Counted from the stretch's first letter, positions 5,771 through 62,497 are shown. The stretch: DNA of 64,000 bases from Dehalococcoidia bacterium (GCA_965232905.1 OZ247432.1:95668-159667), one strand, 5' to 3'. The notes: generated by a model not told the origin, from the letters alone. Program-made: numbers and translations.

Positions 5771-5809
5771 CGCGTGTACTCCTATAGGGTGACTGATTCT
5801 GCTCTCCGG

Positions 5810-7465: not shown

Positions 7466-7575
7466 GGTTGCCCTCCAATCAACTCCTGACAGGGTCTGAT
7501 AACATGTCTGAGACGGTCACATTCTAGCACTCTCCACCTACAGCCTCGACGAGCAGAGACACCCCGAGACTCTCG

Positions 7576-8613: not shown

Positions 8614-8680
8614 CTTTCGATTCGATCGCCAACGAAGCGCCTAGTTAACCCTGTAGCGGCCGACGATTTAGGCTGCCGTC

Positions 8681-9148: not shown

Positions 9149-9231
9149 GATTAGTTCCCTGATGGCTATGAGTCTCAGGCGATAGTTTATACTTGTCGCT
9201 ATCTCAAGACACTGACTAAAGGAGGATTGAA

Positions 9232-12122: not shown

Positions 12123-14102
12123 TCAGCGTCCCGCAGCGACCGCTGCGTCAATCGCGTATATCGCGCCGTTCACTGACGTGAAGTGCACGACGCCGTCCGA
12201 CACCGTGTATGTACGGACACCTGAGAAGAACCCCTTGTTGAATCCCCAGAGTGGCTCGCCCGTCAGTGCGTCGAGCGCGAGCAGGTAGCCATCTGACGAT
12301 TCCAGGTGGAGGATTCCATTCGCGACCTCCAGGGATTGCAGCATGTTGTCCCCAAGGCCCAGGGACCAGCGGACATCTCCGGTCTGCTGGTCAAGGCGGT
12401 AGAGTATCCCGAACTCCGACGCTACGAAAACCGCGCCTTCAGTGACAACCGGGGCAGTTCCGGCCATTGAGTCCAGCTCAAAAGTCCAGGCCTGCTCACC
12501 GGTCGCTGCGTCCAGCCCGTATATGTGAAGGTCAGGGGCGAGGAAGTACATGCCTCCATCTATCACCGGGGTGAAGCCGCGGGCGGGGAACATTCCGGTG
12601 CTGAACTTCCACAGCTCCTCGCCGGTCTCGAGGTCGAGCGCATAGGCCGAGTTCACTGCCGTAACGTAAACGACATCTCCGACTACCACGGGAGGAGTGT
12701 CTGTTCCCACTTCGCCCCGGAAGCTCCAGACGGACTCCCCAGTCTGAGCGTTCAGGGCCTGGAGTCCGCCCTGATCGTCGATCGTGAGCAGCGTGTCGCC
12801 TGCAAGCGCCGCTCCGATCCCGAACTCCCAGCCGGTGTCGAAGGGATAGTACTCGGACGAGACCCAGAGCTCGGCGCCGTTTGCGGCGTCGAGGGCGTGC
12901 ATCTTGCGTCCACCTTCCATGATCGTCGGCACATAGACGGTGCCGTCGCCCGCGAGTGGAGCGTACTGGACCGGGCTACCTGTGTCGTGCTGCCACAGGA
13001 GGTCTCCGGTTGCCGCGTCCAGGGCGTACAGCATGTTGTCGTTTGAGCCGACGTACACCTTGCCGTCAGATACGACGGCTGGCGACCTCACAACGTCGCC
13101 TGTCTCGAATGTCCAGATAGGCGATCCGTTTTCGGCGTCAAGTGCGTACACGTTGCGATCGTCCGCTCCGACATATACCACACCGTCCGAAATGGTAGGC
13201 GCATTCATTGCCCATCCCGGCGCACCGAACTGCCAGAGTGTGGCCTCGATGGGGAGAGGAGGATGCTCGCTGGGCGGCGGCCCAGTCATCCCGCCAGGAG
13301 GCGGAGCGCCCATGGAAGGAGGAGCACACATCTCGATGCCCATGGCAAAGTCCATGAATGCCTGGTTGGGCATCTGGCCCGACGCGGGATCCTGTAGTGC
13401 GGCGCCTAACACTTCGCCGATGTCCGTGTTGGCAAGCAGCTCCTCGATGCACTCCCTGGCTTCCGGTGGGACTTCACCCTGACCGGCATCGCCCAGCAGC
13501 ACTTCGTTCACCGTCAGCGAGAACATCATCGCTCCGGGCAGGGCCATCGCGGTGTCGGGACTCAGGCAGCCTATCACTGCTGGAGCCCATGCTGGCTCCT
13601 CGGGCGATATTGGCTTCGCAAATATGTCCTGCAACTGGTCTTTGCCCAGGTCTGCATCCAGGCAGTCCTGCTCAGTTGCTGAAAGCTGCTTGAACAGGTC
13701 ACCCCAGACTATCGCGACAGAGTCCGTATCTGGCTGTGTCTGTGTCGGCTGGGCTGGCGTCGGAACGGCTGCTGGTGCCTGGGGCGTCGGAGAAGAAATA
13801 GCCGTCGCCGGAGCGCGGGTGGGTCTGGGCGCAGGAATAGGGGTGCTTGGGGCCATGGTAGGTGCCACCGTCGGGGGCGGGAGAGACGCGGTTGGGGCTG
13901 GAAGTGGGGCCTCACGGGAGACCGGGGGCGCCGTTTCGATTGGAACAGCGGTAGGAGCCGCCGCAGGCGAGGCGGGCTGTTGAGGTGGCGGAGGTGGCTG
14001 CTCTTCCGCACAGGCCACCATGAGCCACACAAGGATGAGCAGCGCCACGCCTGGACCTGCTGTCCAGCGGAAAGGCCTGAATGCCGAGGGACCGATCCTC
14101 AT
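12123..14102 (-). CDS. exported PQQ-like (BamB-type) beta-propeller repeat protein with Pro/Ala-rich tether
   Basis: Start re-assigned to ATG 14102..14100, giving MRIGPSAFRPF...LILVWLMVACAEE (signal peptide plus lipobox). The C-terminal roughly 400 aa are repeated G.VYV....G.LYALDA.TGE..W blades. The ORF-track 837-aa version runs through the divergent promoter into the opposite-strand gene. Confidence 0.8.
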   Translation of the reverse strand: MRIGPSAFRPFRWTAGPGVALLILVWLMVACAEEQPPPPPQQPASPAAAPTAVPIETAPPVSREAPLPAPTASLPPPTVAPTMAPSTPIPAPRPTRAPATAISSPTPQAPAAVPTPAQPTQTQPDTDSVAIVWGDLFKQLSATEQDCLDADLGKDQLQDIFAKPISPEEPAWAPAVIGCLSPDTAMALPGAMMFSLTVNEVLLGDAGQGEVPPEARECIEELLANTDIGEVLGAALQDPASGQMPNQAFMDFAMGIEMCAPPSMGAPPPGGMTGPPPSEHPPLPIEATLWQFGAPGWAMNAPTISDGVVYVGADDRNVYALDAENGSPIWTFETGDVVRSPAVVSDGKVYVGSNDNMLYALDAATGDLLWQHDTGSPVQYAPLAGDGTVYVPTIMEGGRKMHALDAANGAELWVSSEYYPFDTGWEFGIGAALAGDTLLTIDDQGGLQALNAQTGESVWSFRGEVGTDTPPVVVGDVVYVTAVNSAYALDLETGEELWKFSTGMFPARGFTPVIDGGMYFLAPDLHIYGLDAATGEQAWTFELDSMAGTAPVVTEGAVFVASEFGILYRLDQQTGDVRWSLGLGDNMLQSLEVANGILHLESSDGYLLALDALTGEPLWGFNKGFFSGVRTYTVSDGVVHFTSVNGAIYAIDAAVAAGR

Positions 14103-14224
14103 AGTGACTGACTCCTGACAGGGCTTTTGATTAATTCTAGGTCTAGGTCTTTGTTTAGTCATTGGGTTATTTGGTTCTATACGCAGAGATTGAATAACGC
14201 GGATTGTGGAGGCTTCCTGGCGGG

Positions 14225-14252
14225 TTGTCCTGCTCTCTCTATCCTGTACAAT
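14225..14252 (+). promoter_or_regulatory. candidate sigma70-type promoter for the PEP carboxylase gene
   Basis: TTGTCC (14225..14230), a 16-nt spacer, then TACAAT (14247..14252). It is followed by a leader hairpin TGTAACG/CGTTACA (14283..14304) abutting the GGGGG SD. Confidence 0.3.
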
Positions 14253-14315
14253 CAAACCCGATAAAAACTGCTGCCGAACGTGTGTAACGCACAGCATCGT
14301 TACAGGGGGTGTGTC

Positions 14316-15791
14316 ATGGCCTTGATTCCCAAAGTGATGAGTACCCAACACCCGGACAACGCCACCCCGGCGCCATTCGCCGACGACCTGGGTGTGCTGA
14401 AAGGGGACGGGGAGGTCGATGAGGCGGTGGACGTTTTCGCCCTGGGTTGCGACGAGCAGATGTGGGACTCGGAGGGGAAAGAGGCGGACAACCAAGTCGT
14501 ACGTAAGCTGCTCACCGGATACCCCGACTTCTTCCAGGAGAAGGCCCAGCTCGGCCTCGACGTTGCCCTTACGCTGCGGGTGCCGAATCCGCGGGTGGAG
14601 CAGGACATGCGCAAGTCGATGGTTGAGGCCCTCCACAGCGTGTCATCTTCCTGGGACATGGCGCAGGGCTTCTACGGCGACGGTCACGTAGCTCCCATCC
14701 AGGAGGTGATCCTTCCGCTCACGACATCCGCCGAAGAGATCGCGATGGTTGAGGCCTACTACCGAAACGTGATCGTGGGCCAGGAAAACCAGACGGTGCT
14801 CTACGGGCAGTCGGTCAAGGACTGGGTTGGAGAGTTCTACCCAAAGACGATCCGGGTGATTCCGCTCATAGAGGACATGGAGCACCTGTTTTACTGCGAC
14901 CGCATCGTAGAGGAGTACCTGCACGACCGCGACCTGCCCTACCAGCGGGTGTTCCTGGCGAGAAGCGACCCGGCCCTCAACTACGGAATGGTGGCCGCTG
15001 AACTCATCCTGAAGGTGGGGCTGCTCCGGCTGCACAATCTCGAAGTGAAGCTGGGCCTGCCTTTGTATCCGATAATCGGGGCGGGATCCGTCCCGTTCCG
15101 CGGTCACCTGGGCCCCGTGAATGTCGAACGCTCCCTGCAGGAGTATCCCAGCGCCCAGACCTTCACCGTGCAGTCGGCGTTCAAGTACGACTATGACCGG
15201 GAAACCGTCAGCCAAGGCATACAGAAGATTCTGGACCATAAGCGGACAGAGCCCACTTTCATCGATCAGGACCGCGCCAGGGAGATTATCGACAAGTCCA
15301 CCGACGAGTACCAGGCGCGCGTGCAGGAGATGACCGATGTCATCCGGACTATCTCGTCCCATGTCCCCAGGCGACGCGAACGCAAGATGCACGTCGGCCT
15401 GTTCGGCTACGGACGTTCTCTCGGCGGAGTTGGAGGAGTTACTCTACCGAGGGCAATCGGCTTCGCGGCCTCGCTGTACTCGATTGGAGTGCCGCCGGAG
15501 CTGTTGGGGCTGGCCTGTCTGACTGAAGACGACCTGAGCTTCATTCGTGAGGTGTATCCAAACCTGGATGGGGACCTGCGCGCAGCCCTACGATTTACAA
15601 ATGAGCGGCACGTGAGGGAATTGCTTGGTGACCCGTACATGAGCCTGGTCGGTCAGTTCACTGACGAGATAGATCGAGTGCACGAGGGACTCACCAGCGC
15701 GATCTGGGCTAGTGTTGGACAAGAAGACGCCACGATGAACGTCTTCCATTACGTAGAAGAGGCTGCCCACCTGCGACGGTTCCTCGGCTAG
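14316..15791 (+). CDS. archaeal-type phosphoenolpyruvate carboxylase (PepcA family)
   Basis: Start moved to ATG 14316. MALIPKVMSTQHPDNA is the hallmark N-terminus of the roughly 500-aa archaeal-type PEPC. At 491 aa, the length fits. Confidence 0.8.
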   Translation: MALIPKVMSTQHPDNATPAPFADDLGVLKGDGEVDEAVDVFALGCDEQMWDSEGKEADNQVVRKLLTGYPDFFQEKAQLGLDVALTLRVPNPRVEQDMRKSMVEALHSVSSSWDMAQGFYGDGHVAPIQEVILPLTTSAEEIAMVEAYYRNVIVGQENQTVLYGQSVKDWVGEFYPKTIRVIPLIEDMEHLFYCDRIVEEYLHDRDLPYQRVFLARSDPALNYGMVAAELILKVGLLRLHNLEVKLGLPLYPIIGAGSVPFRGHLGPVNVERSLQEYPSAQTFTVQSAFKYDYDRETVSQGIQKILDHKRTEPTFIDQDRAREIIDKSTDEYQARVQEMTDVIRTISSHVPRRRERKMHVGLFGYGRSLGGVGGVTLPRAIGFAASLYSIGVPPELLGLACLTEDDLSFIREVYPNLDGDLRAALRFTNERHVRELLGDPYMSLVGQFTDEIDRVHEGLTSAIWASVGQEDATMNVFHYVEEAAHLRRFLG

Positions 15792-39062: not shown

Positions 39063-40571
39063 TTGAGCATACTTTCGGCGCTTAGGCCGTTGGTGCACAG
39101 CAGGAGCCGCAAGGAGACGCTTCTCGCGTTGACTGCGGCCTACATGCTCGTCCAGCTCTCGAGTCTACCAGTCGCAATCGCGCTTCCAACCCTCGCCAAG
39201 GCTTTCGATACAGGTGTCGACGATGCCGCGTGGATAGTCATCATCTACCTGATGATGCTTGGGGCATTCGTGCTACTTGGCGCTCGAATGGGGGACAGGT
39301 ACGGACATGCCCGGGTCTTCTTCCTGGGCATCATACTGTCCACTGCCGGATCGGGGATGATTGCGCTCTCACAGGAGCTATGGCACATAGTCGCCTGGCG
39401 TGCGGTTGCGGGACTAGGCTCAGCCATGGTGATGGGCAACGCTAACGCGATTCTTGCCGCCAACTTTGGCCCCAACGAGCGCGGACGGGCATTCGCGGTG
39501 CCTATCATCGGCGCGCGGTTCGGTACGCTAATCGGCCTTGCCTTCTTTGGAGTGATGCTCCAGTTCGTCAGCTGGCAAATGGTGTTCTTGTCGTTCGTCC
39601 CACTTGGGCTTCTCTCTATCGTGGCGTGCATTCCAATGGTGCGCAGCCAGGCCACCGTTAAATCCGAGCGCGATGACGGCCCGATAGACTGGCTTGGCGG
39701 CGTGCTGTTGGTAGCTGCCGGTGTGGTGCTGGTGCTGTCCGGGTCGCACCTCCATTCGGGCGAGGAGTCTTACGTATCCTCCGATGCGCTGTCTTACCAC
39801 CTGCCGATGCACTTCCTGTTTATTCTGATGCTGGGTGTGTTCTTCCTGGTCGAGCGTAAGGTGTCGAATCCCATAGTGGATGTTCGCCACTTCAAAGAAG
39901 GCCCGTTCTCCCTGTCGCTGGCCACGAACGTCACTTACCACTTTTCCATGCTGGCGACGATGACTTTGGTGCCTATCCTTGTTGAAGAAGGATTCGGTAT
40001 GGCGCCCCTGTATGTGACCGTCGTGCTGCTTCCCAGCCAGACGCTCGGGTTATTCATGCCGATGGTTGCCGGGTGGGTTTACGACAGGTACCAGCCCAGG
40101 CTTATGCGGCCTATCATGTTGATTGTGATCGCGGGCGGTTTCCTGGTCCTGAGCTTCGCAGCTTCTCAAATCCCATTCTGGGCTCTGCCCCTGCTCATGA
40201 TCCCAATTTCGGTGGGAACGAACATGTTTAATCCCATAAACAACGCAACTGTGATGAACTCACTTCCGTTGCAGCATCGCGGTGTTGCATCAGGGATGAT
40301 GGAGACGACACGCGAGATGGGCCACGCCCTCGGTGCGACGACAGCCGCCGCCATGCTCGCCCTCGCGTTGCCAACTGGTGTCTCCTTGCTCTCGGAGGCC
40401 AGTGCACAGGGCTTCTACATTCAGGGTTTCCAGCTGTCCAGTCTGATGGTTGTTTTCGTATTGTGCTTCGGAGCGCTGCTGGCGTTCTTCCACCGCGCGC
40501 CGACGTTTGGAAGACCACCGGCTCCGAGTCGGCCGGTGGAGGGCGCCGCGTCGACGGCGGGCGGCGACTGA
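39063..40571 (+). CDS. MFS transporter, 14-TM DHA2 (EmrB/QacA)-like drug:H+ antiporter
   Basis: 502 aa (TTG start). It has GARMGDRYGHARVF (motif A-like) and about 14 hydrophobic spans. Confidence 0.8.
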   Translation: MSILSALRPLVHSRSRKETLLALTAAYMLVQLSSLPVAIALPTLAKAFDTGVDDAAWIVIIYLMMLGAFVLLGARMGDRYGHARVFFLGIILSTAGSGMIALSQELWHIVAWRAVAGLGSAMVMGNANAILAANFGPNERGRAFAVPIIGARFGTLIGLAFFGVMLQFVSWQMVFLSFVPLGLLSIVACIPMVRSQATVKSERDDGPIDWLGGVLLVAAGVVLVLSGSHLHSGEESYVSSDALSYHLPMHFLFILMLGVFFLVERKVSNPIVDVRHFKEGPFSLSLATNVTYHFSMLATMTLVPILVEEGFGMAPLYVTVVLLPSQTLGLFMPMVAGWVYDRYQPRLMRPIMLIVIAGGFLVLSFAASQIPFWALPLLMIPISVGTNMFNPINNATVMNSLPLQHRGVASGMMETTREMGHALGATTAAAMLALALPTGVSLLSEASAQGFYIQGFQLSSLMVVFVLCFGALLAFFHRAPTFGRPPAPSRPVEGAASTAGGD

Positions 40572-40614
40572 GGGAAGCGCCCGTGCCGTCCCGCTGGACC
40601 TCGGCGGACCAGAT

Positions 40615-41652
40615 ATGAAGACTTCAGACTTCGACTACTACCTGCCTCCAGAGTTGATCGCCCAGAAGCCCGTTGAGCCGCGAGACCACTCGCGCCTGAT
40701 GCTTCTGAATCGAAAGACTGGTCACACAACTCACAGGATGTTCTACGATCTACCAGACTCGCTATGTGAAGGCGATCTTCTCGTATTCAATGACAGCAGG
40801 GTCTTTCCGGCGCGTCTTTACGGGAGATCAGAGACGTCTGGTCGTGACATCGAGCTGCTGCTGCTGTCACGCACTGGCAATGGCGAATGGAGGGCGCTTG
40901 TGAAGCCGGGTCGCCGGTTGCGCACCGGGGCACGCTTCGTTGTGTCCGGGAAAGACGGTAGGGGAGAGACGACCGGGGAGGTCGTAGACATGGAGCCTGC
41001 CGGGTCGAGACTGGTGCGATTCGAGTCAGAGCCGGACCTGATGAAGATCGGTCACATTCCTCTGCCGCCGTACATACACGAGGAGTTGCAGAACAGCGAC
41101 CGCTATCAGACCGTGTACTCTGACGCTGAGGGAAGCGTGGCCGCACCAACCGCCGGACTTCACTTCAGCGATTCGCTGCTTGAACGTCTGGATGATATGG
41201 GAGTGAGGCGAGCATTCGTCACTCTTCACGTAGGATGGGACTCGTTCAGACCTGTCACGTCCGAAGACCCTTTTGATCACGACATGCACGCTGAGCAGTG
41301 GGAACTGTCGAGTGAGGCCGCGGACGAGATAAACTCGGCACGAGCCGAGAATCGCCGGATTATCTCCGTCGGGACCACAGCAGTTAGACTCCTGGAAAAC
41401 GCGGCGCTCGTGAATGACAGTACGGATCAGTTGGTAACTCCCGGGGCAGGGTGGGTCGACCTGTTTATATCGCCTGGCTTCGAGTTCAGGGTGATAGACG
41501 GACTCGTGACGAATTTCCATCTGCCCAAGTCGACTCTGCTAATGCTCGTGTCAGCCTTCGCCAGCAGAGAAATCATCCTGAACGCCTACGAGGCTGCTGT
41601 CAGTGAGAGATACCGGTTCTACAGCTTCGGCGACGCGATGCTGATCCATTGA
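40615..41652 (+). CDS. queA: S-adenosylmethionine:tRNA ribosyltransferase-isomerase
   Basis: Start moved to ATG 40615. MKTSDFDYYLPPELIAQKPVEPRDHSRLMLL and GTTAVRLLE are QueA hallmarks. The ORF-track extension overlaps the MFS gene. Confidence 0.93.
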   Translation: MKTSDFDYYLPPELIAQKPVEPRDHSRLMLLNRKTGHTTHRMFYDLPDSLCEGDLLVFNDSRVFPARLYGRSETSGRDIELLLLSRTGNGEWRALVKPGRRLRTGARFVVSGKDGRGETTGEVVDMEPAGSRLVRFESEPDLMKIGHIPLPPYIHEELQNSDRYQTVYSDAEGSVAAPTAGLHFSDSLLERLDDMGVRRAFVTLHVGWDSFRPVTSEDPFDHDMHAEQWELSSEAADEINSARAENRRIISVGTTAVRLLENAALVNDSTDQLVTPGAGWVDLFISPGFEFRVIDGLVTNFHLPKSTLLMLVSAFASREIILNAYEAAVSERYRFYSFGDAMLIH

Positions 41653-52184: not shown

Positions 52185-53081
52185 CTATTCGCCGCTTATC
52201 TTCACCCCTGCCATATCCTCGATGAAGTTGGCTATTGCCGAGTGGTCGGCATTGCCCTTGCCCTCATTCATTAGAGAGACGATCATCTGCTGGACGAGTG
52301 ACGTCACTGGCAGTCCTACGCCGAGCTCCTTGCCGGTCTGGATCGCGTTGTTGAGGTCCTTGTTGTGGAGGGCTATCCTGAATCCCGGCTCGAAGTTGCC
52401 TTCGATCATCATGGGCCCCTTCGCGTTGAGGACGGTAGAGCCGGCGAGACCGCCCCTGATCGCCTCGAACACCGTGTTGGGGTCAAGTCCGGCCTTCCTG
52501 GCAAGTGTCAGAGCCTCTCCAACTGCCTCTATGTTCGCCGCAACGATGATCTGGTTCGCGAGCTTCGTGGTGTTGCCAGCCCCGTAGTCGCCGCAGAGTA
52601 CGATGCTGGAACCCACCGCTTCGAGCAGCCCCATGTGGGCATCGAACACTTCCTTCTTGCCGCCGACCATGATCGCCAGTGTGGCTGATATGGCTCCCGG
52701 CTCACCACCGGATACGGGCGCATCAAGGAATTCAACGCCCTGCGCTTCGCAGGCGGCTGCAATCTTCTGGGAGCTCGCGGGCGCGATGGAGCTCATGTCG
52801 ATGACCACCGAACCCTCAGTGGCGCCTTCGAGAACTCCGTTGGGTCCAAGTATGGCCGCTTCGGAGTCGGCCGAGTCAGGGACCATTGTGATTACGGTCG
52901 GAGACGATGCGGCTACCTCAGCCGATGAGGATGCTGGCCTGGCGCCGTCGCTGACTATCTCCTCGACTGCCGTGCCGACCACGTCGTAAACCGTAAGCGA
53001 GTATCCGGCCTTCATTAGATTGCGGGCCATGGGCCTGCCCATGATGCCCAGTCCGATGAATCCCACGTCGCCGCTTGGCAT
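52185..53081 (-). CDS. NAD(P)-dependent beta-hydroxyacid dehydrogenase (2-hydroxy-3-oxopropionate / 3-hydroxyisobutyrate reductase family)
   Basis: 298 aa. N-terminal GFIGLGIMGRPMARNL Rossmann motif, DAPVSGG, and KDLNNA. Confidence 0.88.
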   Translation of the reverse strand: MPSGDVGFIGLGIMGRPMARNLMKAGYSLTVYDVVGTAVEEIVSDGARPASSSAEVAASSPTVITMVPDSADSEAAILGPNGVLEGATEGSVVIDMSSIAPASSQKIAAACEAQGVEFLDAPVSGGEPGAISATLAIMVGGKKEVFDAHMGLLEAVGSSIVLCGDYGAGNTTKLANQIIVAANIEAVGEALTLARKAGLDPNTVFEAIRGGLAGSTVLNAKGPMMIEGNFEPGFRIALHNKDLNNAIQTGKELGVGLPVTSLVQQMIVSLMNEGKGNADHSAIANFIEDMAGVKISGE

Positions 53082-53278
53082 GTTGATCTCCTTCCATCAG
53101 TTCGAGTTGAGGGTGCATTGTGTTAAGTCACTTGTGACTGGCTGAAAGGTTAATCCGTACCATGTTGCCGGTCAAGTAGAGGTATGTGTCGGGGATTGAC
53201 TGCCCAAACTGTCCTAGCTACCATTCGTATGCTTTCTCAGGTTTAGCTACGGCCTAATCATCACGGTCAGCGGGGACT

Positions 53279-53599
53279 ATGAGCAACGAAATTCCAGGTT
53301 GGCCCCGGGTTCAGCAGCTTCTGCACGACATCATGGGCCGGTGGGAGCGCAAGGAGGGCCGTAAGGGGCTTCCGGGCATCCACGAGTATGAGTGGGCGAC
53401 TCCAGCCGATCTCGCCAACGACGAGGCGATGGGCATGAAGTTTATCGAGCCAGGCACACCGGCTGAGGAGACGGCGCTGATCATCTCCCTACGCAAGGGC
53501 TTCGGCTCCATCCCAAGAATGCCAATGGGCGGTCCGTTTATAAAGGCGGATGAGATCGACGAGATTTCCCGCTGGATCGACGCCGGGATGCCGGAATAG
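53279..53599 (+). CDS. hypothetical protein, first gene of the nitrile-hydratase-family operon
   Basis: 106 aa with no recognised motif. The stop lies 1 nt before the next ATG. Confidence 0.55.
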   Translation: MSNEIPGWPRVQQLLHDIMGRWERKEGRKGLPGIHEYEWATPADLANDEAMGMKFIEPGTPAEETALIISLRKGFGSIPRMPMGGPFIKADEIDEISRWIDAGMPE

Positions 53600-53600
53600 G

Positions 53601-54044
53601 ATGTCCAACTTGGACGACAGGCCCAGCAGCAGCGTCAGCCTAACTTGGCAGAACGGGTTCAGGTTCGGCTCCACAGACTCCCACGGTCACACCCTCACTC
53701 TCGACGCCCCGCAATCGGAGGGTGACTCGTTCGAGGGATTCATGCCAGGGGACATGCTGCTCACGGCTCTTGCGGGCTGCAGCGGTATAGACATCGTCAA
53801 CATCCTCAGTAGGCAGCGCCAGCAGGTTATGGGCCTGGAAATCAGCGTGAACGGACGTCAGAATCCCGATCCCCCGTGGGCGTGGGAAGACGTCTCGATT
53901 CACTACACACTTCGAGGAAGCGACCTGAACCCACGCCTTGTGGAGCGGGCAATCGATCTGTCTGAGAACAGGTACTGCTCAATTGGGGCCACCATAGGCG
54001 GTGTGACCCGGGTGAGCAGTACCTTTGAAATAGTAGAAGGCTAA
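53601..54044 (+). CDS. OsmC/Ohr-family protein
   Basis: Start moved to ATG 53601. MPGDMLLTALAGCSGIDIV ... ENRYCSIGATI contains the two conserved Cys of OsmC-type peroxiredoxins. Confidence 0.8.
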   Translation: MSNLDDRPSSSVSLTWQNGFRFGSTDSHGHTLTLDAPQSEGDSFEGFMPGDMLLTALAGCSGIDIVNILSRQRQQVMGLEISVNGRQNPDPPWAWEDVSIHYTLRGSDLNPRLVERAIDLSENRYCSIGATIGGVTRVSSTFEIVEG

Positions 54045-54062
54045 TTGACAAAGGAGCAATCT

Positions 54063-54758
54063 GTGACCGATATCACACCAATCGATTCCGAACTGCTGGA
54101 AACCCTCCGAGCAATTCCTTCCTGCTCGATCGCAAACGCGATTGAGACCTTTAACGTACAGCCCAGAAACGTTGGCTTCATGGGCCCAGAGATCAAGAGC
54201 ATCTTCCCGAACATGGGTCACATGATCGGCTACGCCGTGACTGCCAAGATCGTGGCTGATGCGCCGCCGTCGGGTCACATGAACGTTTCCAGGACTGAGT
54301 GGGTCGACGAGATCATGAAGGTCCCCGGCCCTCGCGTGCTTGTGCTGGAGGACCTCGACTACCCAAACCCGATCGGATCGTTCTGGGGAGAGGTGCAGGC
54401 AAACTTGCACAGGGCGCTCGGGGCAGTCGGCACTGTCACCAATGGCGGCGTAAGGGACCTCGATGAGATGCAGGAAGCCGGATTCTTCGCCTTCGCCTCG
54501 TGCGTACTGGTATCTCATGCCTATGTCCACATCACGGATGTGGGCGTACCGGTGAAAATCGGTGGGCTCGAAGTTAATTCAGGCGACATCATCCAAGGCG
54601 ACCAGCACGGTGTCATAAAGATTCCTCGCGACATCGCGGCTGAGATTCCTGGCGCAGTCAAGCGGGTGGAAGACAATGAACAGGAGATGATCGGCTACGC
54701 TAACTCCGAAGGTTTCACGGTCGAGGGTCTCAAGGAGATGCTGGCCCAGCGTTACTAG
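54063..54758 (+). CDS. RraA-family protein (RraA / 4-hydroxy-4-methyl-2-oxoglutarate aldolase fold)
   Basis: GTG 54063 is preferred (AAGGAG 6 nt upstream). SCSIANAIE ... VLVLED...GSFWGEVQA ... TNGGVRDLDE resemble RraA/HMG-aldolase blocks. Confidence 0.7.
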   Translation: MTDITPIDSELLETLRAIPSCSIANAIETFNVQPRNVGFMGPEIKSIFPNMGHMIGYAVTAKIVADAPPSGHMNVSRTEWVDEIMKVPGPRVLVLEDLDYPNPIGSFWGEVQANLHRALGAVGTVTNGGVRDLDEMQEAGFFAFASCVLVSHAYVHITDVGVPVKIGGLEVNSGDIIQGDQHGVIKIPRDIAAEIPGAVKRVEDNEQEMIGYANSEGFTVEGLKEMLAQRY

Positions 54759-54774
54759 AAGACGGACAGAGTAG

Positions 54775-55770
54775 ATGGAGCCAGCTATGTCGTCTCCCAA
54801 GGTAGCGTTTATCACCGGACTGCCAGAGAAGGTCGTGGATGTGGTGCTCGGGTATAACCCCGAGGGCTGGAACACCGAGGTCGTCTATCGGGACACCCCG
54901 CTTGAAGACCAGAAGCGCATCGTTGCTGATGCCGACTTCATCATGGTCTATCGCGCGTCCCTTCACGACGACGTTTTGAGGGCGGCAACCGGCGTTCGAA
55001 TAGTTCAGGTCTTGTCTGCAGGATACGACAGCATGAACCTGCGCCTGATGCGCGATCTGGACGTCCCCTGCTGCAACAACGGCGGGGCGAACTCGCGGGC
55101 CGTAGCAGACCACTCAGTGCTGCTCATGCTGGCTGTGTACAAGCAGCTTACGGCGTCCGACGTGTCGACTCGCGAGGGTCGCTGGGGCCAGCCTATCACC
55201 GGGCTCAACACGTTTGAGATGGCGGACAAGCTAGTTGGGATCCTCGGACTCGGAAACATCGGACGGCGGGTCGCCCGCCGCGTGCAGGGATTCGAGTCCA
55301 GGGTCCAGTACTACGACCTGTTCCCGCTGGCTCCAGAAGTCGAGACGGAACTTGGCGTCGCGCGGGTGGGCATCCGCGAACTGTTCGAGACATCGGACAT
55401 AATCTCCGTTCACACGCCGCTCACACCTGGCACACGACACATTGTCAGCCGGGAGCTGATTGGACTGATGAAGCCAACGGCCGTTCTTGTGAACACCAGC
55501 CGGGGGCCTGTGGTGGATGAGTCTGCGCTCATCGATGCACTGCGCGAGGGCAGCATCGCCGCGGCCGGTCTGGACGTATTCGAGAAAGAACCCGTTGAGC
55601 AAGACAACCCTCTCCTGTCCATGGACAACGTTGTCGTCACGCCTCACTCTGCGGGCACGACATGGGACACATGGTTCAGGAGGGCGGAATTCGCATACGA
55701 AAACATGCAGGGCGTCTGGAACGGCGACGCCCCCATGGCTGTTGCACAAGACTACGACATAGAGGACTAG
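54775..55770 (+). CDS. D-isomer-specific 2-hydroxyacid dehydrogenase (PGDH/GyaR-like)
   Basis: 331 aa. GILGLGNIGRRVARR NAD motif, VNTSRGPVVDE, and HSAGTT with the catalytic His. An alternative ATG at 54787 has a GGAG upstream. Confidence 0.88.
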   Translation: MEPAMSSPKVAFITGLPEKVVDVVLGYNPEGWNTEVVYRDTPLEDQKRIVADADFIMVYRASLHDDVLRAATGVRIVQVLSAGYDSMNLRLMRDLDVPCCNNGGANSRAVADHSVLLMLAVYKQLTASDVSTREGRWGQPITGLNTFEMADKLVGILGLGNIGRRVARRVQGFESRVQYYDLFPLAPEVETELGVARVGIRELFETSDIISVHTPLTPGTRHIVSRELIGLMKPTAVLVNTSRGPVVDESALIDALREGSIAAAGLDVFEKEPVEQDNPLLSMDNVVVTPHSAGTTWDTWFRRAEFAYENMQGVWNGDAPMAVAQDYDIED

Positions 55771-55784
55771 GAACAGGAGAGCAG

Positions 55785-56102
55785 ATGGACCCCGTAATCA
55801 AGAGCGTTGACGGCGCCGCCAACCCGGTGCTTGGACCCGACGACGGCGTACCGAACTACGTAATGCTGTGGGTGCAGCACCCTCCCGGAGGCACCAGCGC
55901 CCAGCACATTCACCCCTGGGAGCACCAGGCATACATCGTCGAGGGCGAAGGCGTGCTGTGGGTTGAGGGAGAGGAGTTCCCGATAAAGGCCGGAGACGCC
56001 GTGCTCGTACCACCGGACCGGGAGCACCAGTTCAGGAACACCGGGGACGTCACGCTCAGTCGCGTGACCGTCAACCCGCTAAGCTCAGTCGGGCATGAGT
56101 AG
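55785..56102 (+). CDS. cupin-domain protein
   Basis: Start moved to ATG 55785. 105 aa. HIHPWEHQAYIVEGEG ... GDAVLVPPDREHQFRNTG. The stop overlaps the next ATG by 8 nt. Confidence 0.8.
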   Translation: MDPVIKSVDGAANPVLGPDDGVPNYVMLWVQHPPGGTSAQHIHPWEHQAYIVEGEGVLWVEGEEFPIKAGDAVLVPPDREHQFRNTGDVTLSRVTVNPLSSVGHE

Positions 56103-56397
56103 CGCTCACGACATGGGCGGACGACCCAGCGATGACCCCATCGACCAGTCCACACACGAGTGGGCGGACTGGGAGCACCTCACAAACGCGCTCGTCGGTG
56201 CCCTGCGCAACCACGATCTCATGAACGTGGATGAGCTTCGTCGCGGAATCGAGTCGATGGCTCCCGAAGAGTACCAGGCATCCACGTACTACGAACGCTG
56301 GTCTGCGTCGCTCGAGACCTTGCTGGTCGAGAAGGGAATTCTGGCAACCGACGAGATAGACGCGCGCGCCGCACGGGTGGACGAGCGATGGGAGTAG
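56095..56397 (+). CDS. nitrile hydratase beta subunit, N-terminal half, encoded as a separate polypeptide
   Basis: 100 aa. HDMGG near the N-terminus and YYERWSASLETLLVEKGILATDEI match the conserved helical N-domain of NHase beta. Confidence 0.8.
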   Translation: MSSAHDMGGRPSDDPIDQSTHEWADWEHLTNALVGALRNHDLMNVDELRRGIESMAPEEYQASTYYERWSASLETLLVEKGILATDEIDARAARVDERWE

Positions 56398-56699
56398 TCT
56401 TCTCTGCTGAGCCGGGTCTGTTCGAAGTGGGTGACCCGGTTACAATCAGGTCTGACCAAGTCGACCATCACCACCGCACACCGTGGTTCATCAAGGGCAA
56501 GCCTGGGATAGTTCGGGCAGTTAGCGGCCCCTTCTTCAACCCTGAATCGCGAGCGCACGGCGGAGACGGCGTGCCCAAGCGCCTGCTATACCAGGTCGAA
56601 TTCGACCCGGACGTGGTGTGGGGAGAGCGGTATCATGAAGGCAATAGGGACCTGCTGCTGGTAGATGTCTACGAGCAGTGGTTGGAGCCGAGGGGATAG
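56388..56699 (+). CDS. nitrile hydratase beta subunit, C-terminal (SH3-like) half, encoded as a separate polypeptide
   Basis: 103 aa. FEVGDPVTIRS...HHRTPWFIKGKPGIVRAV...PESRAHG...LYQVEFDPDVVWG...VDVYEQWLEP tracks the NHase beta C-domain. Its ATG overlaps the upstream stop by 10 nt. Confidence 0.8.
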   Translation: MGVVFSAEPGLFEVGDPVTIRSDQVDHHHRTPWFIKGKPGIVRAVSGPFFNPESRAHGGDGVPKRLLYQVEFDPDVVWGERYHEGNRDLLLVDVYEQWLEPRG

Positions 56700-56700
56700 C

Positions 56701-57354
56701 ATGAGCGACGACCATCATGATGAAAGTGAACACGAGGGAATGCAACCAGACACCTCCATAAGCTTCCGGGCAAAGCGGGCGATCGCGATCCATGAGTTGC
56801 TCGTGGAAAAGGGCGTAGTCGCCGCTGGGGAAGTGGAGGAACAGGCAAATCGGGTGCGCTCGAGATCGCCACTGGACGGCGCAAAGGTTGTCGCAAGGAC
56901 ATGGGTTGACCCCGAGTTCAAGTCCAGGCTGCTTGCCGACGCACGGTCAGCGGTTGGCGAAATGGGCTACTCGTTGACCCACGATGCCGAACTCGCGGTG
57001 TTGGAAAACACCGGAGACGTTCATCACCTTGTCGTATGTACCCTGTGTTCATGCTATCCGACCGCCCTGCTTGGTCCTCCGCCCGACTGGTACAAGAGCT
57101 TCGCCTACAGGAAGCGTGCAGTCGTGGAACCGCGCGCGGTCATGAGCGAGTTCGGGCTCGATTTGAGCGATGATGTTCAGGTCCGCGTGGTGGACAGCAC
57201 CGCCGATCTCCGCTACCTCGTACTGCCCCGGCGTCCCGATGGGACTGAAGGCATGTCCGAGGAAGAGTTGTCGGAGCTGGTAACACGGGACAGCATGATA
57301 GGCGTGTCAGAGGCTCTGCGGCCGGAAGCGGCAATGCCTGTAGAGGCCGACTAG
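56701..57354 (+). CDS. nitrile hydratase alpha subunit, cobalt-type metal site
   Basis: Start at ATG 56701, 1 nt after the upstream stop. 217 aa. VVCTLCSCYP is the C-T-L-C-S-C-Y claw-setting motif. Confidence 0.88.
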   Translation: MSDDHHDESEHEGMQPDTSISFRAKRAIAIHELLVEKGVVAAGEVEEQANRVRSRSPLDGAKVVARTWVDPEFKSRLLADARSAVGEMGYSLTHDAELAVLENTGDVHHLVVCTLCSCYPTALLGPPPDWYKSFAYRKRAVVEPRAVMSEFGLDLSDDVQVRVVDSTADLRYLVLPRRPDGTEGMSEEELSELVTRDSMIGVSEALRPEAAMPVEAD

Positions 57355-57366
57355 GGAGGCTCAGTA

Positions 57367-58986
57367 ATGGCAACAGTCACCGGCGCTCAGGCCCTTGTGC
57401 GACAGCTGATCGCCGAGGGAGTCGACACAATCTTCGCCCTTCCCGGTGTGCAGATCATGGCGGCGTTCGACGCCTTCTACGAGTACCAGGATGAAATTCG
57501 TCTCGTTCACGTACGGCACGAGCAGGCCACGACGTACATGGCGGACGGCTACGCCAAGGCGACCGGCAAGGTCGGCGTTGCCATGGCCGTGCCTGGGCCT
57601 GGTGCAATCAACGCTGGCTCTGGACTCGGAACTGCGTTTGCGACATCAACTCCGGTACTTCTTATATCTGGCCAGATAGACAGCCAGTCACTCGGCAGGC
57701 GTGAGGGTCAACTTCACGAGGTCGAAGACCAGCTCGACGTGTTCCGCCCGCTGACCAAGTGGGTACATCGCGTCACGCGCGTAGAGGAGATTCCCGGAGC
57801 CGTCCACGAGGCGTTCAGGCACCTGAAGACTGGCCGACCCAGGCCGGTCGAGCTGGAAATTCCACCGGACACCCTCGCGGCGACGGGTGAGGCAGAGACG
57901 ATTCCTGCAGAAGATTACCCACCTGAGTCGGCAGGAGAAGACGAAATCGCGCAGGCCGCCGATATTCTGGCGTCTGCTGAGCGCCCCGCAATACTCGTTG
58001 GCGGAGGAGCCCGCATTTCCGGAGCAGGGGACGAAGCGCTGCAGCTTGCCGAATTCCTTCAGGCCCCACTGATGGGGACTCAGGACTCCAAGGGCGTGGT
58101 GCCGGAGAACAGCCCGTACTACGTCGGCACCAACTACGCCAGTGTGGGCCCTGCTGACGTCGTGTTTCCAGACACCGACGTGCTCCTGGCAATAGGCACC
58201 AGGCTGCTCTTCAGGGAGCTGCCCGAAGGAGATCAACCGAGGATCATACACATCGACATAGACCCAGACGAGATTGGACGTAATCTCCCGACTGAACTTG
58301 GCATCGTGGCGGACGCCAAGACTGCCTCTGCACAGTTGCTCGACACGCTCAGGGAGTCTTCTCAGCCGAAATCTTCTGACGCCGACAGGATCGCTCGTTT
58401 CCGGTCAGACTTCGCCTCGAGGATGCGGGCCCTGGTCCCGCCACAGGCGCAGATGATCGAAGACATGCGCGCCGCGCTGCCCGATGACGCTGTCGTCGTC
58501 AGCGGCGTGACCAACATCGGTTACTGGAGCAACGTCTTCTTCGAGGTTCGGGAACCCCAGACTTATATCACGTCTGGATACTTCGGCACGCTTGGATATG
58601 CATTTCCGACCGCCCTCGGCGCGCAGGTAGGTCGTCCCGACAGGAAGGTCATAGCCCTGTGTGGCGACGGCGGATTCATGTACAGCCCGCAGGAACTCTC
58701 CTCGGCTATGAGGCATGGAATCAACGCAGTTGCCGTGGTGTTCAACAACAATGCCTTCGGCGCGTCGGAGTGGGACCAGACTCACAGGTACGGCGGCAAC
58801 TTCATTGGCACCGACCTTCATAACCCGGACTTTGTGCAGTTGGCGGAGTCATTCGGCGCCGTTGGGATGAGGACTGACCCTGAAGGATTTGGAGAGATGC
58901 TTGAAGTCGCCCTGAATGCAGACGCGCCAGTGCTTCTCGAGGTCGTTGTTCCTAACATGATGCCTCCATTCCAGATCGTGGAGTAG
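57367..58986 (+). CDS. thiamine-diphosphate-dependent enzyme (acetolactate synthase / benzoylformate decarboxylase superfamily)
   Basis: 539 aa. The N-terminal Pyr domain has the HEQATTYMADGYA catalytic Glu context. The C-terminal ThDP motif is GDGGFMYSPQELSSAMRHGINAVAVVFNNNAFG. Confidence 0.85.
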   Translation: MATVTGAQALVRQLIAEGVDTIFALPGVQIMAAFDAFYEYQDEIRLVHVRHEQATTYMADGYAKATGKVGVAMAVPGPGAINAGSGLGTAFATSTPVLLISGQIDSQSLGRREGQLHEVEDQLDVFRPLTKWVHRVTRVEEIPGAVHEAFRHLKTGRPRPVELEIPPDTLAATGEAETIPAEDYPPESAGEDEIAQAADILASAERPAILVGGGARISGAGDEALQLAEFLQAPLMGTQDSKGVVPENSPYYVGTNYASVGPADVVFPDTDVLLAIGTRLLFRELPEGDQPRIIHIDIDPDEIGRNLPTELGIVADAKTASAQLLDTLRESSQPKSSDADRIARFRSDFASRMRALVPPQAQMIEDMRAALPDDAVVVSGVTNIGYWSNVFFEVREPQTYITSGYFGTLGYAFPTALGAQVGRPDRKVIALCGDGGFMYSPQELSSAMRHGINAVAVVFNNNAFGASEWDQTHRYGGNFIGTDLHNPDFVQLAESFGAVGMRTDPEGFGEMLEVALNADAPVLLEVVVPNMMPPFQIVE

Positions 58987-60561: not shown

Positions 60562-61713
60562 CTATGGGCCCTCTTCATAGTATTGTAGTGGCGACCGGGG
60601 GGCGAAGGGCTTGTACGGGTACTTGGCGAGACTGTCCTCGTCGATGTCGATTCCGATTCCAGGGGTGTCCGGTACCTTGATGTACCCGTTTTCGACCTCG
60701 AAGGGCTGCTTAGCGATGTCCCTGCCGAAGTCCTCCAGGTTCACGAAATACTCTGTTATCAGGAAGTTGGGGATCGCCGCCGACACCTGGATCGTGGCCG
60801 CCAGTCCGAGTGTCGTGCTGTTGAAGTTGTGAGGCGAGACGACGACGTAGTATGGCTCGGCCATCGCCGCGATCTCTTTGAGTTCCAGGATTCCTCCGAC
60901 GTTGCAGACGTCCGGGTTGAGAATATCTGCTGCCTGCTTCTCGAATACGTCTCGGAACTCGAACTTGGTGTAGAGCTCTTCGCCCGTGACGATCGGAATG
61001 TTCACGTCGCGCTTGACGGCTGCGAGAGCGTCGATGTTTTCGGCGAGCACGGGCTCTTCATACCAGAACGGCCTGTACCGTTCAATCTCGCGCCCGATCC
61101 TGCGCGCGTGCATCGGGGCGAGCCTCCGGTGCATTTCGATGAGAATGTCCACGTCCCAGCCGACTGCCTCGCGCACGGCTCTCACATTCTCGATTGCAGC
61201 ATTTTCGACGTCCTTGCTGACGAACGTCCGCCACGGGCCCGGTATCGGGTCGAACTTCATGGCGCTGAAGCCCATCTCGACGACTTCCTGCGCACGCTCC
61301 GCAAGCTGCTCAGGACCGCCGCCACCGCCTCCCCAGCCGTTGGCGTAAACCCTGATCTTGTCACGGCAGGCGCCGCCGAGGAGCATGTGCACCGGCATAC
61401 CCGCGACCTTGCCGGTGATGTCCCATAGTGCGTGCTCGATGCCGCTGACGGCGCACCAGAAGTCCATCGCCCCGCGACGTCCGGCGAAGTCGTCGTATGA
61501 CCACTGGAGAAAGTGCTTGATGTTTCGCGGGTCTCGTCCAATCAGGTACCTGCGGAGCTGATCGATGTGCGCCGTTACCTGCACGTCCCGGTCGGACTGT
61601 GTGTACGACTCACCCCAACCGTAGATGCCCTCGTCGGTCTCTACCTTGACGAAGCAGAGGTTCTTTCCGCGGCCCGGATTCGCGAGGAAGTGCTTGACGT
61701 CGGTTATCTGCAT
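60562..61713 (-). CDS. enolase-superfamily dehydratase (mandelate racemase / D-galactonate dehydratase-like)
   Basis: Start moved to ATG 61713 (AGGAGA 5 nt upstream). MQITDVKHFL...FVKVETDEGIYGWGE, and metal ligands in the DILIEMH, WYEEP and VSPHN contexts. Confidence 0.85.
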   Translation of the reverse strand: MQITDVKHFLANPGRGKNLCFVKVETDEGIYGWGESYTQSDRDVQVTAHIDQLRRYLIGRDPRNIKHFLQWSYDDFAGRRGAMDFWCAVSGIEHALWDITGKVAGMPVHMLLGGACRDKIRVYANGWGGGGGGPEQLAERAQEVVEMGFSAMKFDPIPGPWRTFVSKDVENAAIENVRAVREAVGWDVDILIEMHRRLAPMHARRIGREIERYRPFWYEEPVLAENIDALAAVKRDVNIPIVTGEELYTKFEFRDVFEKQAADILNPDVCNVGGILELKEIAAMAEPYYVVVSPHNFNSTTLGLAATIQVSAAIPNFLITEYFVNLEDFGRDIAKQPFEVENGYIKVPDTPGIGIDIDEDSLAKYPYKPFAPRSPLQYYEEGP

Positions 61714-61732
61714 GTCTGTCTCCTGCTGGGAC

Positions 61733-62497
61733 TTATTGGGCTGTCCACCCGCCGTCCAGTACAAGCTCGCTTCCCGTCATCCAGCCGGACTCGTCAGAGG
61801 CGAGGTAGAGGACTCCGTTGGCGATCTCCTCGGGCTCTCCGTAGCGCCCCATGGGTATGCGCGAGATCATCCGCTCGTAGTTGCCCGGATCGCCTCGGCG
61901 GGCCTGGGTCATCGGCGTGTTGACCGGGCCTGGGTGGACAGAGTTGCATCGTATGTCATATTCCGCGTACTGCATTGCCGTCAGTTTCGTCAGGAGCCTG
62001 ACCGCCCCTTTTGACGACTGGTACTGAGCGCTCGACATCTCAGTGCCCACGATTCCAAGCTGCGACGAGATGTTGATGATGGAGCCGCCTCCTGAGTCGA
62101 TCATGGCGGGGATGGCGACCTTCGTGCCAAGAAATACCCCCTTGGCGTTGATGTCCATCACGTGGTCCCAGTCAGCTTCCGTGGTCTCGTGCACAAGGCC
62201 CCACTGGCTCACACCGGCGTTGTTGACCAGGATGTCGAGGCGGCCGTACTCGGCAACCGTCTTTTCGATAGCCGCCTGCCATTCCGCCTCGCTTGTTACA
62301 TCGAGATGCAGGAAGAGGCAGTCGCCTCCCGCGTCACTGATCTCCTGAGCGACCGATGAACCGTCTTCCAGGACATCCCCGATGGCGACCTTAGCGCCCT
62401 CACGAGCGAAGGTCTGAGCTTCTACTGCCCCCATCCCGCGCGCGCCGCCACTTATGAATGCAACTTTGCCCTCGAGTCTCACGGTTGGCTCCCTCAA
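61733..62497 (-). CDS. SDR-family oxidoreductase
   Basis: 254 aa. SGGARGMG, NNAG, and a YQSSK catalytic motif. Confidence 0.88.
   Translation of the reverse strand: MREPTVRLEGKVAFISGGARGMGAVEAQTFAREGAKVAIGDVLEDGSSVAQEISDAGGDCLFLHLDVTSEAEWQAAIEKTVAEYGRLDILVNNAGVSQWGLVHETTEADWDHVMDINAKGVFLGTKVAIPAMIDSGGGSIINISSQLGIVGTEMSSAQYQSSKGAVRLLTKLTAMQYAEYDIRCNSVHPGPVNTPMTQARRGDPGNYERMISRIPMGRYGEPEEIANGVLYLASDESGWMTGSELVLDGGWTAQ

Follow-up and report, generated by a model that had tools for sequence, protein, structure and literature searches.

Does a beta subunit of nitrile hydratase (NHase) that is encoded in two pieces belong to a working enzyme and, if so, to which one? The question is raised by a 64,000-nucleotide (nt) stretch of DNA from a Dehalococcoidia bacterium (GCA_965232905.1 OZ247432.1:95668-159667), here called the window, in which two overlapping open reading frames (ORFs) with the conserved blocks of an NHase beta subunit are followed by an NHase alpha gene. 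An earlier note on this DNA had described them as a split-beta, three-polypeptide, cobalt (Co)-type member of the NHase family with the gene order of thiocyanate hydrolase (SCNase). The ORF positions, the lengths of the three products and the quoted motifs are all present as claimed (Table 1), and the domain scores together with the alpha-subunit motif VVCTLCSCYP bear out the assignment to a split-beta, three-polypeptide, Co-type NHase family with the order beta-N, beta-C, alpha. We conclude from the sequence analysis below that the three ORFs very probably encode a functional Co-type NHase of three polypeptides: a beta N-terminal chain (beta-N), a beta C-terminal chain (beta-C) and an alpha subunit.

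Table 1. Coordinates, strands and family matches of the NHase genes and their neighbors in the window
Feature	Position	Strand	Product	Family match
Beta-N (NHase beta N-terminal arm and helical domain)	56095-56397	+	100 aa, 11.43 kDa	PF21006
Beta-C (NHase beta C-terminal SH3-like domain)	56388-56699	+	103 aa, 11.71 kDa	PF02211
Alpha subunit, Co-type	56701-57354	+	217 aa, 23.92 kDa	PF02979
Cupin with metal-binding His and Glu motifs	55785-56102	+	105 aa	PF07883 Cupin_2, 70 bits
Thiamine-diphosphate (TPP) enzyme	57367-58986	+	539 aa	PF02776/PF00205/PF02775; PRK08266 596 (cut-off 571)
First operon gene	53279-53599	+	106 aa	no Pfam or NCBIfam match
Upstream co-directional genes (106-aa protein, OsmC-like, RraA-like aldolase/decarboxylase family, D-2-hydroxyacid dehydrogenase)	53279-55770	+		Pfam
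Tartronate-semialdehyde (2-hydroxy-3-oxopropionate) reductase	52185-53081	-		equivalog 411 (cut-off 397)
Galactonate dehydratase (MR_MLE)	60562-61764	-		equivalog 314 (cut-off 311)

The family scores of all three chains far exceed chance. Beta-N, which reads MSSAHDMGG...YYERWSASLETLLVEKG...ERWE up to its stop codon, matches the NHase_beta_N family with an E-value of 4e-25 (88.5 bits; cut-off 21.5). Beta-C, which reads MGVVFSAEPGLFEVGDPV...HHHRTPWFIKGKPG...VDVYEQWLEPRG up to its stop, matches NHase_beta_C at 3e-18 (66.3 bits; cut-off 27.7), and alpha matches its Pfam family at 4e-78 (261.4 bits; cut-off 27.2) and the NHase alpha equivalog TIGR01323 with 252.3 bits (cut-off 249.85). The ORF list also offers a 229-aa version of alpha starting at 56665; the shorter start in Table 1 is backed by relatives. 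On TIGR03888, a 226-position model of the full-length beta subunit, beta-N covers positions 1-98 (84.2 bits) and beta-C positions 136-225 (58.2 bits). Neither fragment alone reaches the cut-off of 152.2, and neither is a single-chain beta of 206-233 aa. From this coverage we take the two ORFs to be the two structural domains of NHase beta, with the linker of about 37 positions between them (99-135) absent. The proposal that the two small proteins are NHase beta halves thus holds, by PF21006, PF02211 and TIGR03888 and by the fold matches in the PDB given below.

To see how the two halves meet in relatives, we scanned 185,579 species genomes, which yielded 80 loci; the junction was readable in 77 related loci, including five fetched separately. 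These 77 stem from independent assemblies, many of them chromosome-level. In every one (77 of 77), spanning at least five bacterial lineages, beta-N runs for 100-103 codons to a stop of its own, and beta-C is a separate ORF next to it with a start codon of its own. The two reading frames stand in all three possible relationships (0, +1 and +2), which differ by clade. In the window, beta-C starts at an ATG within the final codons of beta-N (ATGGGAGTAG, 56388-56397), giving a 10-nt overlap in different frames. The same overlap, ATGGGnnTAG, occurs in the window's Dehalococcoidia clade (clade A), in most Gammaproteobacteria and at one Latescibacterota locus; a second Latescibacterota locus has GTG at the position where the overlap starts, and the Gemmatimonadaceae junction sequence matches the ATGGGnnTAG type. 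Other junctions are TAGTG, with a 1-nt overlap, and TGAnATG, with a 1-nt gap, the latter in a second Dehalococcoidia clade. At four Acidimicrobiia loci (L077, L081, L083 and L084, ~6294-6310), beta-N and beta-C are in-frame, and TAG is directly followed by GTG.

The proteins tell the same story. A database of 5.8 billion proteins holds 411 beta-N homologues, the best 120 of which are 66-89% identical to the window protein and nearly all 100 aa long, with the N-domain only. The 108 beta-C homologues in the same database are all 89-119 aa long and have the C-domain only.

A single-base indel in an ordinary beta gene had been named as a caveat, as it could mimic the split. If the two ORFs were fused, the product of about 200 aa would fall near the low end of real betas (206 aa in 4fm4_B), and a few database relatives are indeed unsplit short beta chains, such as P0218 with 180 aa. 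However, a single-base error cannot explain three frame relationships and clade-specific junctions, and the same differences in frame and junction sequence rule out a systematic assembly error shared by all 77 loci. The linker, moreover, is absent rather than frameshifted, and both halves, whose homologues are each about 100 aa long, are under strong purifying selection. We therefore give next to no chance to an indel from sequencing or assembly, or to a frameshift that recently made a pseudogene, and the caveat falls away. The junctions indicate instead that the fission is old and that the junction has changed several times without loss of the two-gene state. The earlier point that the second half has its own ATG placed for coupling also gains support from the recurrence of the -10 overlap across clades, and the position of the beta-C start would suit translational coupling with beta-N.

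Could the two ORFs nevertheless be joined as protein, by programmed frameshifting or stop read-through? They overlap by 10 nt, in some Acidimicrobiia they share a frame and are separated only by TAG then GTG, and a Latescibacterota locus in which beta-C and alpha are fused indicates that the arrangement tolerates fusion. Against joining, neither a junction sequence nor a direction of shift is conserved (-1, +1 and 0 all occur), a slippery heptamer is not evident in ATGGGAGTAG, and the beta-C start codon is kept in every clade. In addition, separate small subunits have been seen in characterized homologues, by sodium dodecyl sulfate polyacrylamide gel electrophoresis (SDS-PAGE) and matrix-assisted laser desorption/ionization (MALDI) in one case (PMC7329996) and by native mass spectrometry in another (PMC8574189). 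We regard joining as extremely unlikely and treat beta-N and beta-C as separate chains.

Several loci vary on this arrangement. In the Acidimicrobiia junction, one sense mutation or read-through would restore a single beta chain, some 200 aa long and without a linker. The Latescibacterota fusion (L047, 6294-7268, in OZ220089.1) joins beta-C and alpha in-frame in a 324-aa ORF with VCTLCSCYP intact; either a natural re-fusion or the loss of a stop codon could account for it. At the other Latescibacterota locus, L038, beta-C and alpha are separate.

We then turned to the residues on which catalysis depends. In NHases, the Thr and Tyr of C-T-L-C-S-C-Y mark Co-type centers, and Ser and Thr at these positions mark Fe-type centers. 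Residues 111-120 of the window alpha are VVCTLCSCYP, and VCTLCSCYP is invariant in 77 loci. A pair of beta-subunit arginines holds the oxidized cysteines of NHase, with Tyr68 and Trp72 of beta in the active site. Aligned to the beta subunit of the Pseudomonas putida Co-NHase, beta-N runs with an offset of +3, which pairs R49 with beta-Arg52, Y65 with beta-Tyr68 and W69 with beta-Trp72. In beta-C, H28-H29-R30-x-P32 aligns with the HTR-x-P (HxR-x-P) motif of PDB chains, which we take to hold the second arginine, beta-Arg157 in Pseudonocardia numbering; R30 is its equivalent. On this alignment, each beta fragment would supply one cysteine-holding arginine, R49 from beta-N and R30 from beta-C.

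These positions hardly vary. Across 78 loci, the invariant residues of beta-N are H5, D6, G8, G9, W26, E27, R49, R50, E53, Y65, Y66, E67, R68 and W69, and across 74 loci those of beta-C are H28, H29, R30 and P32. Invariance of the key residues over 74-78 loci points to purifying selection on both beta halves. Inspection of the substrate pocket, as the earlier note had advised, thus finds equivalents of the Arg pair and of the Tyr and Trp, all of them present and invariant.

We also built AlphaFold (AF2) models of the two halves on family alignments and compared them with the PDB. The mean confidence (pLDDT) is 77 for beta-N and 84 for beta-C. At probability 1.0, both models match NHase beta and SCNase chains only. 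Beta-N superimposes on NHase beta N-domains with TM-scores, normalized on the query (TMq), of 0.64-0.71, and on SCNase beta with 0.70. For beta-C, the TMq is 0.68-0.81, or 0.76-0.81 once a Comamonas Fe-type chain is set aside; against SCNase alpha it is 0.81, with a TM-score on the target (TMt) of 0.71.

Fold and architecture alone would allow the window operon to be an SCNase orthologue that converts SCN- to COS and ammonia. The three-chain architecture, the gene order and the Co-type Cys cluster are all in common with SCNase, as are the folds just described. The SCNase of Thiobacillus thioparus (2DD4) has a split beta and the same betaN-betaC-alpha-equivalent order (there called beta-alpha-gamma). 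The sequences, however, lie much closer to ordinary NHases. The best PDB match of alpha is the Bacillus smithii Co-NHase alpha (1v29_A, E 7e-65), compared with 2e-45 for SCNase gamma; alpha also passes the NHase alpha equivalog and stays at 186.9 on the SCNase gamma model TIGR03887, whose cut-off is 291.45. For beta-N the values are 7e-14 with NHase beta and only 3e-3 with SCNase beta, the match to 2dd4_B beginning at chain residue 47-48, and beta-C matches NHase beta at 5e-9 with no SCNase alpha match in the PDB at E<=0.01. In size, too, the halves differ from the SCNase chains, of which beta has 157 aa with an N-terminal extension and alpha 126 aa (here 100 and 103), and the neighborhood lacks sulfur-oxidation and cyanase genes. 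The chemistry of SCNase differs as well. The betaN-betaC-alpha order is found again in a characterized NHase, discussed next, so it is not diagnostic of SCNase. We accordingly give an SCNase very little credence. By sequence, the window encodes an ordinary Co-type NHase whose likeness to SCNase is architectural only.

The direct precedent is ScNHase of Streptomyces canus CGMCC 13662, in which AnhD (10.41 kDa) is the beta N-terminus, AnhE (11.35 kDa) the beta C-terminus and AnhA (21.33 kDa) the alpha subunit, encoded in the order anhD-anhE-anhA; an activator gene was not found in the genome (PMC7329996). The enzyme contains cobalt, forms (AnhD-AnhE-AnhA)2 and is essentially inactive without all three chains; its small subunits were detected as separate proteins by SDS-PAGE and MALDI, and it was described as similar to eukaryotic NHase (PMC7329996). 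AnhD/AnhE/AnhA correspond to beta-N/beta-C/alpha of the window, which shares the gene order, the Co-type center and, within its 64 kb, the lack of an activator gene. The second relative is toyocamycin NHase (TNHase, ToyJKL) of S. rimosus, a dimer of heterotrimers of 21.2, 10 and 11.4 kDa by native mass spectrometry, for which no high-resolution structure existed as of 2021 (PMC8574189). Like ScNHase, it is of the Co-type and lacks an activator. The earlier list of three-chain relatives correctly held SCNase and ToyJKL and lacked ScNHase. We found no experimental structure of a split-beta NHase in the copy of the PDB that we searched.

In subunit size the window enzyme (11.43/11.71/23.92 kDa for beta-N/beta-C/alpha) is close to ScNHase (10.41/11.35/21.33) and TNHase (10/11.4/21.2) (PMC7329996, PMC8574189). 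Such sizes are standard for the architecture, so shortness relative to SCNase does not mark a new lineage, contrary to what had been suggested. There are differences as well. ScNHase comes from a soil actinomycete, whereas the window host is a Dehalococcoidia metagenome-assembled genome (MAG) that is probably marine and sponge-associated; the window alpha has a longer, acidic and His-rich N-terminus; and a coupled cupin gene lies upstream in the window. The substrates of ScNHase are acetamiprid, thiacloprid and benzonitrile.

Canonical Co-NHases (Bacillus smithii 1V29, Bacillus sp. RAPc8/Geobacillus pallidus 2DPP, Pseudomonas putida 3QXE and Pseudonocardia thermophila 1IRE) share with the window a close alpha homologue, an identical VCTLCSCYP, equivalents of Arg52, Tyr68, Trp72 and Arg157, and the placement of beta before alpha. 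Unlike the window, they have one beta chain of 219-233 aa with a linker, and the activator gene usually follows alpha. Fused NHases of the eukaryotic/Monosiga type also do without a long beta linker, but those are fusions and the window is a fission. One single-chain protein, P0142 (394 aa; betaN at 5-98, betaC at 103-195, then alpha), is 44% identical to the window beta-N; with VVGTLDSSGYP in place of the Cys cluster, it presumably does not act as a metal-dependent hydratase.

How common is the split? An exhaustive HMMER scan of 1.84 billion cluster representatives gave 1,514 beta-N matches. Among the best 150 of these, some 120 consist of beta-N alone, around 10 are canonical betas (217-232 aa, with linker) and around nine are single-chain betaN-betaC-alpha fusions, likewise without the long linker. 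A sister group whose members are about 60% identical to the window beta-N comprises 2,956 clusters of 95-97 aa, whose proteins carry the name 'nitrile hydratase (subunit beta)' at JGI and NCBI. Two actinobacterial loci of this group, one from a Gaiellaceae MAG, encode betaN (95-96 aa), betaC (93 aa) and alpha (203-210 aa) with 4-nt overlaps and no activator, at 62-63%, 42-44% and 57-63% identity to the window chains, respectively. The branch had been called rare and possibly a distinct lineage; in fact, the split-beta architecture is not rare, and it is not a new lineage. What is new is an uncharacterized, probably sponge-associated branch of a kind of enzyme that is already known and very common. 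Split-beta, activator-free NHases emerge as a very large and mostly uncharacterized family that extends beyond two Streptomyces enzymes and SCNase. Three further matches, P0123, P0125 and P0200 (186-206 aa), have two tandem beta-N-like domains and no beta-C domain, and could be fusions of beta-N with an activator. The 221-aa top match, P0121, was considered as a cupin-betaN fusion and rejected: its N-terminus looks like a helix-turn-helix rather than a cupin.

Together, these observations suggest how the enzyme would be made and would work. The genes would be translated in a coupled manner from one mRNA, with spacings of -8 (cupin to beta-N), -10 (beta-N to beta-C) and +1 nt (beta-C to alpha). 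An AGGAGA Shine-Dalgarno sequence lies 6 nt ahead of the cupin ATG, and GAGGGGA precedes the alpha ATG, which is 1 nt past the beta-C stop. By analogy with the characterized enzymes, the three chains would assemble, probably as a dimer of heterotrimers, and the Cys-Thr-Leu-Cys-Ser-Cys site of alpha would bind Co(III). R49 of beta-N and R30 of beta-C would hold the oxidized cysteines, beta-N would add the pocket Tyr and Trp, and the linker of about 37 residues found in canonical betas would simply be dispensed with. The predicted reaction turns a nitrile into its amide by hydration. What we infer from homologues comprises the activity, the cobalt content, the quaternary structure and a chaperone role.

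The chaperone role concerns beta-N. AnhD also serves as a metal and self-subunit-swapping chaperone (PMC7329996), and beta-N of the window, which is activator-like, probably doubles in the same way as a maturation (subunit-swapping and metal) chaperone, with no dedicated activator. Its match to the NHase accessory-protein model TIGR03889 (27.2 bits, E 3e-6) spans residues 57-88 only and lies below the cut-off of 46. The same segment contains a helix, ETLLVEKGIL, that resembles the alpha helix HELLVEKGVV; the common motif occupies residues 68-82 of beta-N (56296-56340; ETLLVEKGILATDEID) and 41-55 of alpha (56821-56865; HELLVEKGVVAAGEVE) and accounts for weak reciprocal profile matches between the two chains (E 3e-4 and 3.5e-3). 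Both the sub-threshold TIGR03889 match and the alpha-like helix are consistent with a part in maturation.

Taken further, the same evidence would make beta-N a P14K/NhlE-type activator or chaperone only, and the active enzyme alpha with beta-C, or alpha alone. The weak accessory-protein match and the behavior of AnhD lean this way, and catalytic competence has been reported for ToyJ on its own (Nelp et al. 2014, cited in PMC7329996). Yet the accessory-protein score falls short of its cut-off, whereas positions 1-98 of the beta model are fully matched (84 bits), and the HDxGG arm, R49, Y65 and W69 are invariant. ScNHase needs both halves: roughly 4% of its activity is left in AnhEA, which lacks AnhD, and roughly 0.2% in AnhDA (PMC7329996). 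A chaperone-only beta-N is very unlikely in our judgment, and a dual role, catalytic and chaperone, is more likely.

One more alternative concerns what the enzyme is for. ToyJKL, the best-known three-chain NHase, has toyocamycin as its substrate and is encoded within a deazapurine biosynthetic cluster; the toy genes place alpha first (toyJ, toyK, toyL). The window genes might by extension encode a secondary-metabolite tailoring enzyme or an NHLP-type precursor of a peptide made by the ribosome and modified after translation (RiPP) rather than a catabolic NHase; partial matches of alpha to NHLP leader models (TIGR03793, 69 bits, residues 135-192) could be read in this sense. However, no biosynthetic genes, whether for deazapurines, RiPPs or other products, flank the operon. 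The queA gene (40450-41652), which lies at a distance of 15 kb, belongs to ordinary tRNA modification, alpha is full-length (217 aa) with an intact metal site as opposed to a leader peptide of about 80 aa, and the neighborhoods of the cassette differ between phyla. The chance that the operon serves such tailoring is slim indeed, and we retain a Co-type NHase.

Some findings weigh against this assignment. Alpha clears the TIGR01323 cut-off with just 2.5 bits to spare. No amidase lies within 30 kb, which leaves the steps past the amide out of sight. Other parts of the 3.39-Mb genome may encode an activator. Finally, membership in the same clade as AnhDEA and ToyJKL is something we infer from architecture, sizes and the sister group rather than from a tree.

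Where does this enzyme occur? All 80 genome loci (80 of 80) are MAGs, mostly of Dehalococcoidia, with Pseudomonadales and other Gammaproteobacteria, Latescibacterota, Gemmatimonadaceae and Acidimicrobiia also represented. Many names among them are ones that we take to point to sponges: COS, IRC and RHO bins, SB06xx bins, the ENGE20 sample, Langseth MAGs and chromosome-level OZ/OY MAGs, presumably of a type that comes from the Aquatic Symbiosis Genomics project. The MAG accession numbers turned up in none of the papers searched. Judged by these MAG and sample names, and in part by published accounts (PMC8826442, PMC12117321), the branch is probably mostly sponge-associated.

Across phyla, beta-N, beta-C and alpha are the only genes common to the loci, and the flanks of the roughly 80 loci, out to about 6 kb each way, contain no fourth conserved gene. 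The retention of just these three genes indicates that the cassette moves as a self-contained unit. We also built a neighbor-joining tree of the concatenated subunits, which is approximate (about 400 columns, no support values). In it, Gammaproteobacteria, Latescibacterota and Gemmatimonadaceae cluster with the Dehalococcoidia clade that contains the window, and the second Dehalococcoidia clade groups with Acidimicrobiia. Such cross-phylum groupings suggest horizontal transfer of the cassette between phyla that share a habitat. A recently acquired island in the window was considered on composition and rejected, the GC content being flat at 0.57-0.62.

The MAG names, the cross-phylum tree and the tight conservation of the cupin described below invite the idea that the cassette is a module specific to the sponge holobiont, handed on horizontally among unrelated symbiont phyla, for a nitrile of the host or its community, with the Dehalococcoidia cupin possibly an obligatory partner. 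We consider this unlikely as it stands, and offer it as speculation. Candidate nitriles could be bromotyrosine-derived, such as aeroplysinin-1, or small cyanohydrins, and the cupin might be a metallochaperone that replaces the absent activator or a hydroxynitrile-lyase-like enzyme. A link to the aeroplysinin-1 nitrile hydratase of Aplysina cavernicola gave no match and is kept as speculation only; that activity is Mn-dependent and was assigned to 26- and 72-kDa bands with peptides lacking NHase homology (PMC3766881). For sponge microbiology, the cassette predicts a nitrile-hydrating capacity common to symbiont phyla.

The significance of the locus can be stated narrowly. The split is real and ancient, and the understanding of how NHases work is unchanged. 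To enzymology, the branch brings Co-NHases of uncultured marine bacteria that are compact, encoded by three genes and apparently able to mature by themselves, and activator-free expression is conceivable. Its interest rests on the unsolved structure of a split-beta NHase, the spread of the cassette across phyla and the unexplained coupled cupin.

The cupin gene lies directly upstream of the NHase genes and shares 8 nt with beta-N, where its stop meets the beta-N start. It occupies this position in 24 Dehalococcoidia loci and is not found beside the cassette in other phyla. Among Dehalococcoidia relatives, the protein is 86-98% identical, above the conservation of the NHase subunits. Its best NCBIfam match is (R)-mandelonitrile lyase, with a score of 27 against a cut-off of 140.

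Downstream, the TPP enzyme begins 12 nt past alpha and is found in the same place in 10 Dehalococcoidia loci; it is a possible pathway partner. Outside Dehalococcoidia, a TPP enzyme is also the single neighbor that recurs: in at least four gammaproteobacterial loci, one of PRK06154 is encoded divergently upstream (for example L087, 7162-8796, - strand). Both subfamilies, PRK08266 and PRK06154, are uncharacterized. TPP enzymes beside the cassette in two phyla hint weakly at 2-oxo/2-hydroxy acid chemistry past the amide.

The cupin, the three NHase genes and the TPP enzyme appear to belong to one operon at ~53.2-60.4 kb, with the genes for the 106-aa protein, the OsmC-like and RraA-like proteins and the dehydrogenase upstream and NhaA at the end. 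A promoter-like site lies at 53196-53224, near the gene for the 106-aa protein, and no + strand terminator-like site was found between 52.8 and 60.7 kb. The order of the operon is kept in about 25 Dehalococcoidia loci and not in other phyla. The 106-aa protein is 77-99% identical in closer Dehalococcoidia relatives and 62-63% identical in two more distant ones. The best match of the D-2-hydroxyacid dehydrogenase is glyoxylate reductase, below cut-off. Tartronate-semialdehyde reductase is encoded divergently upstream of the operon, and galactonate dehydratase and a short-chain dehydrogenase/reductase lie downstream. These neighbors, which act on C2-C4 hydroxy and oxo acids, are a weak hint at a small aliphatic or alpha-hydroxy nitrile as substrate. 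Between 30 and 64 kb, we found no amidase, aldoxime dehydratase, nitrilase or activator-like gene, and the 64-kb window contains no second beta-N-like or activator-like ORF anywhere.

We also considered a mandelonitrile/mandelate-type pathway made up of a cupin lyase, the NHase, the 2-hydroxyacid dehydrogenase, a TPP decarboxylase and an MR_MLE racemase. It is unsupported and was dropped because of the low cupin score, because the MR_MLE protein is the galactonate dehydratase, because of the missing amidase and because only the NHase genes are conserved across phyla.

Near-identical metagenome contigs display strain-level variation around the operon. At L004, the alpha gene is broken into ORFs of 91 and 129 aa (8607-9256). 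The 2-hydroxyacid dehydrogenase is shortened to 154 aa at L002 and L003 (~6414-7664), and at L001 and L004 genes with DUF6978 and DUF1828 are inserted between the dehydrogenase and the cupin (~5513-7504). At L001-L004, nhaA is followed by an MmeI-type restriction-modification enzyme of 927 aa (~12400-15190), which does not occur at the matching site of the window.

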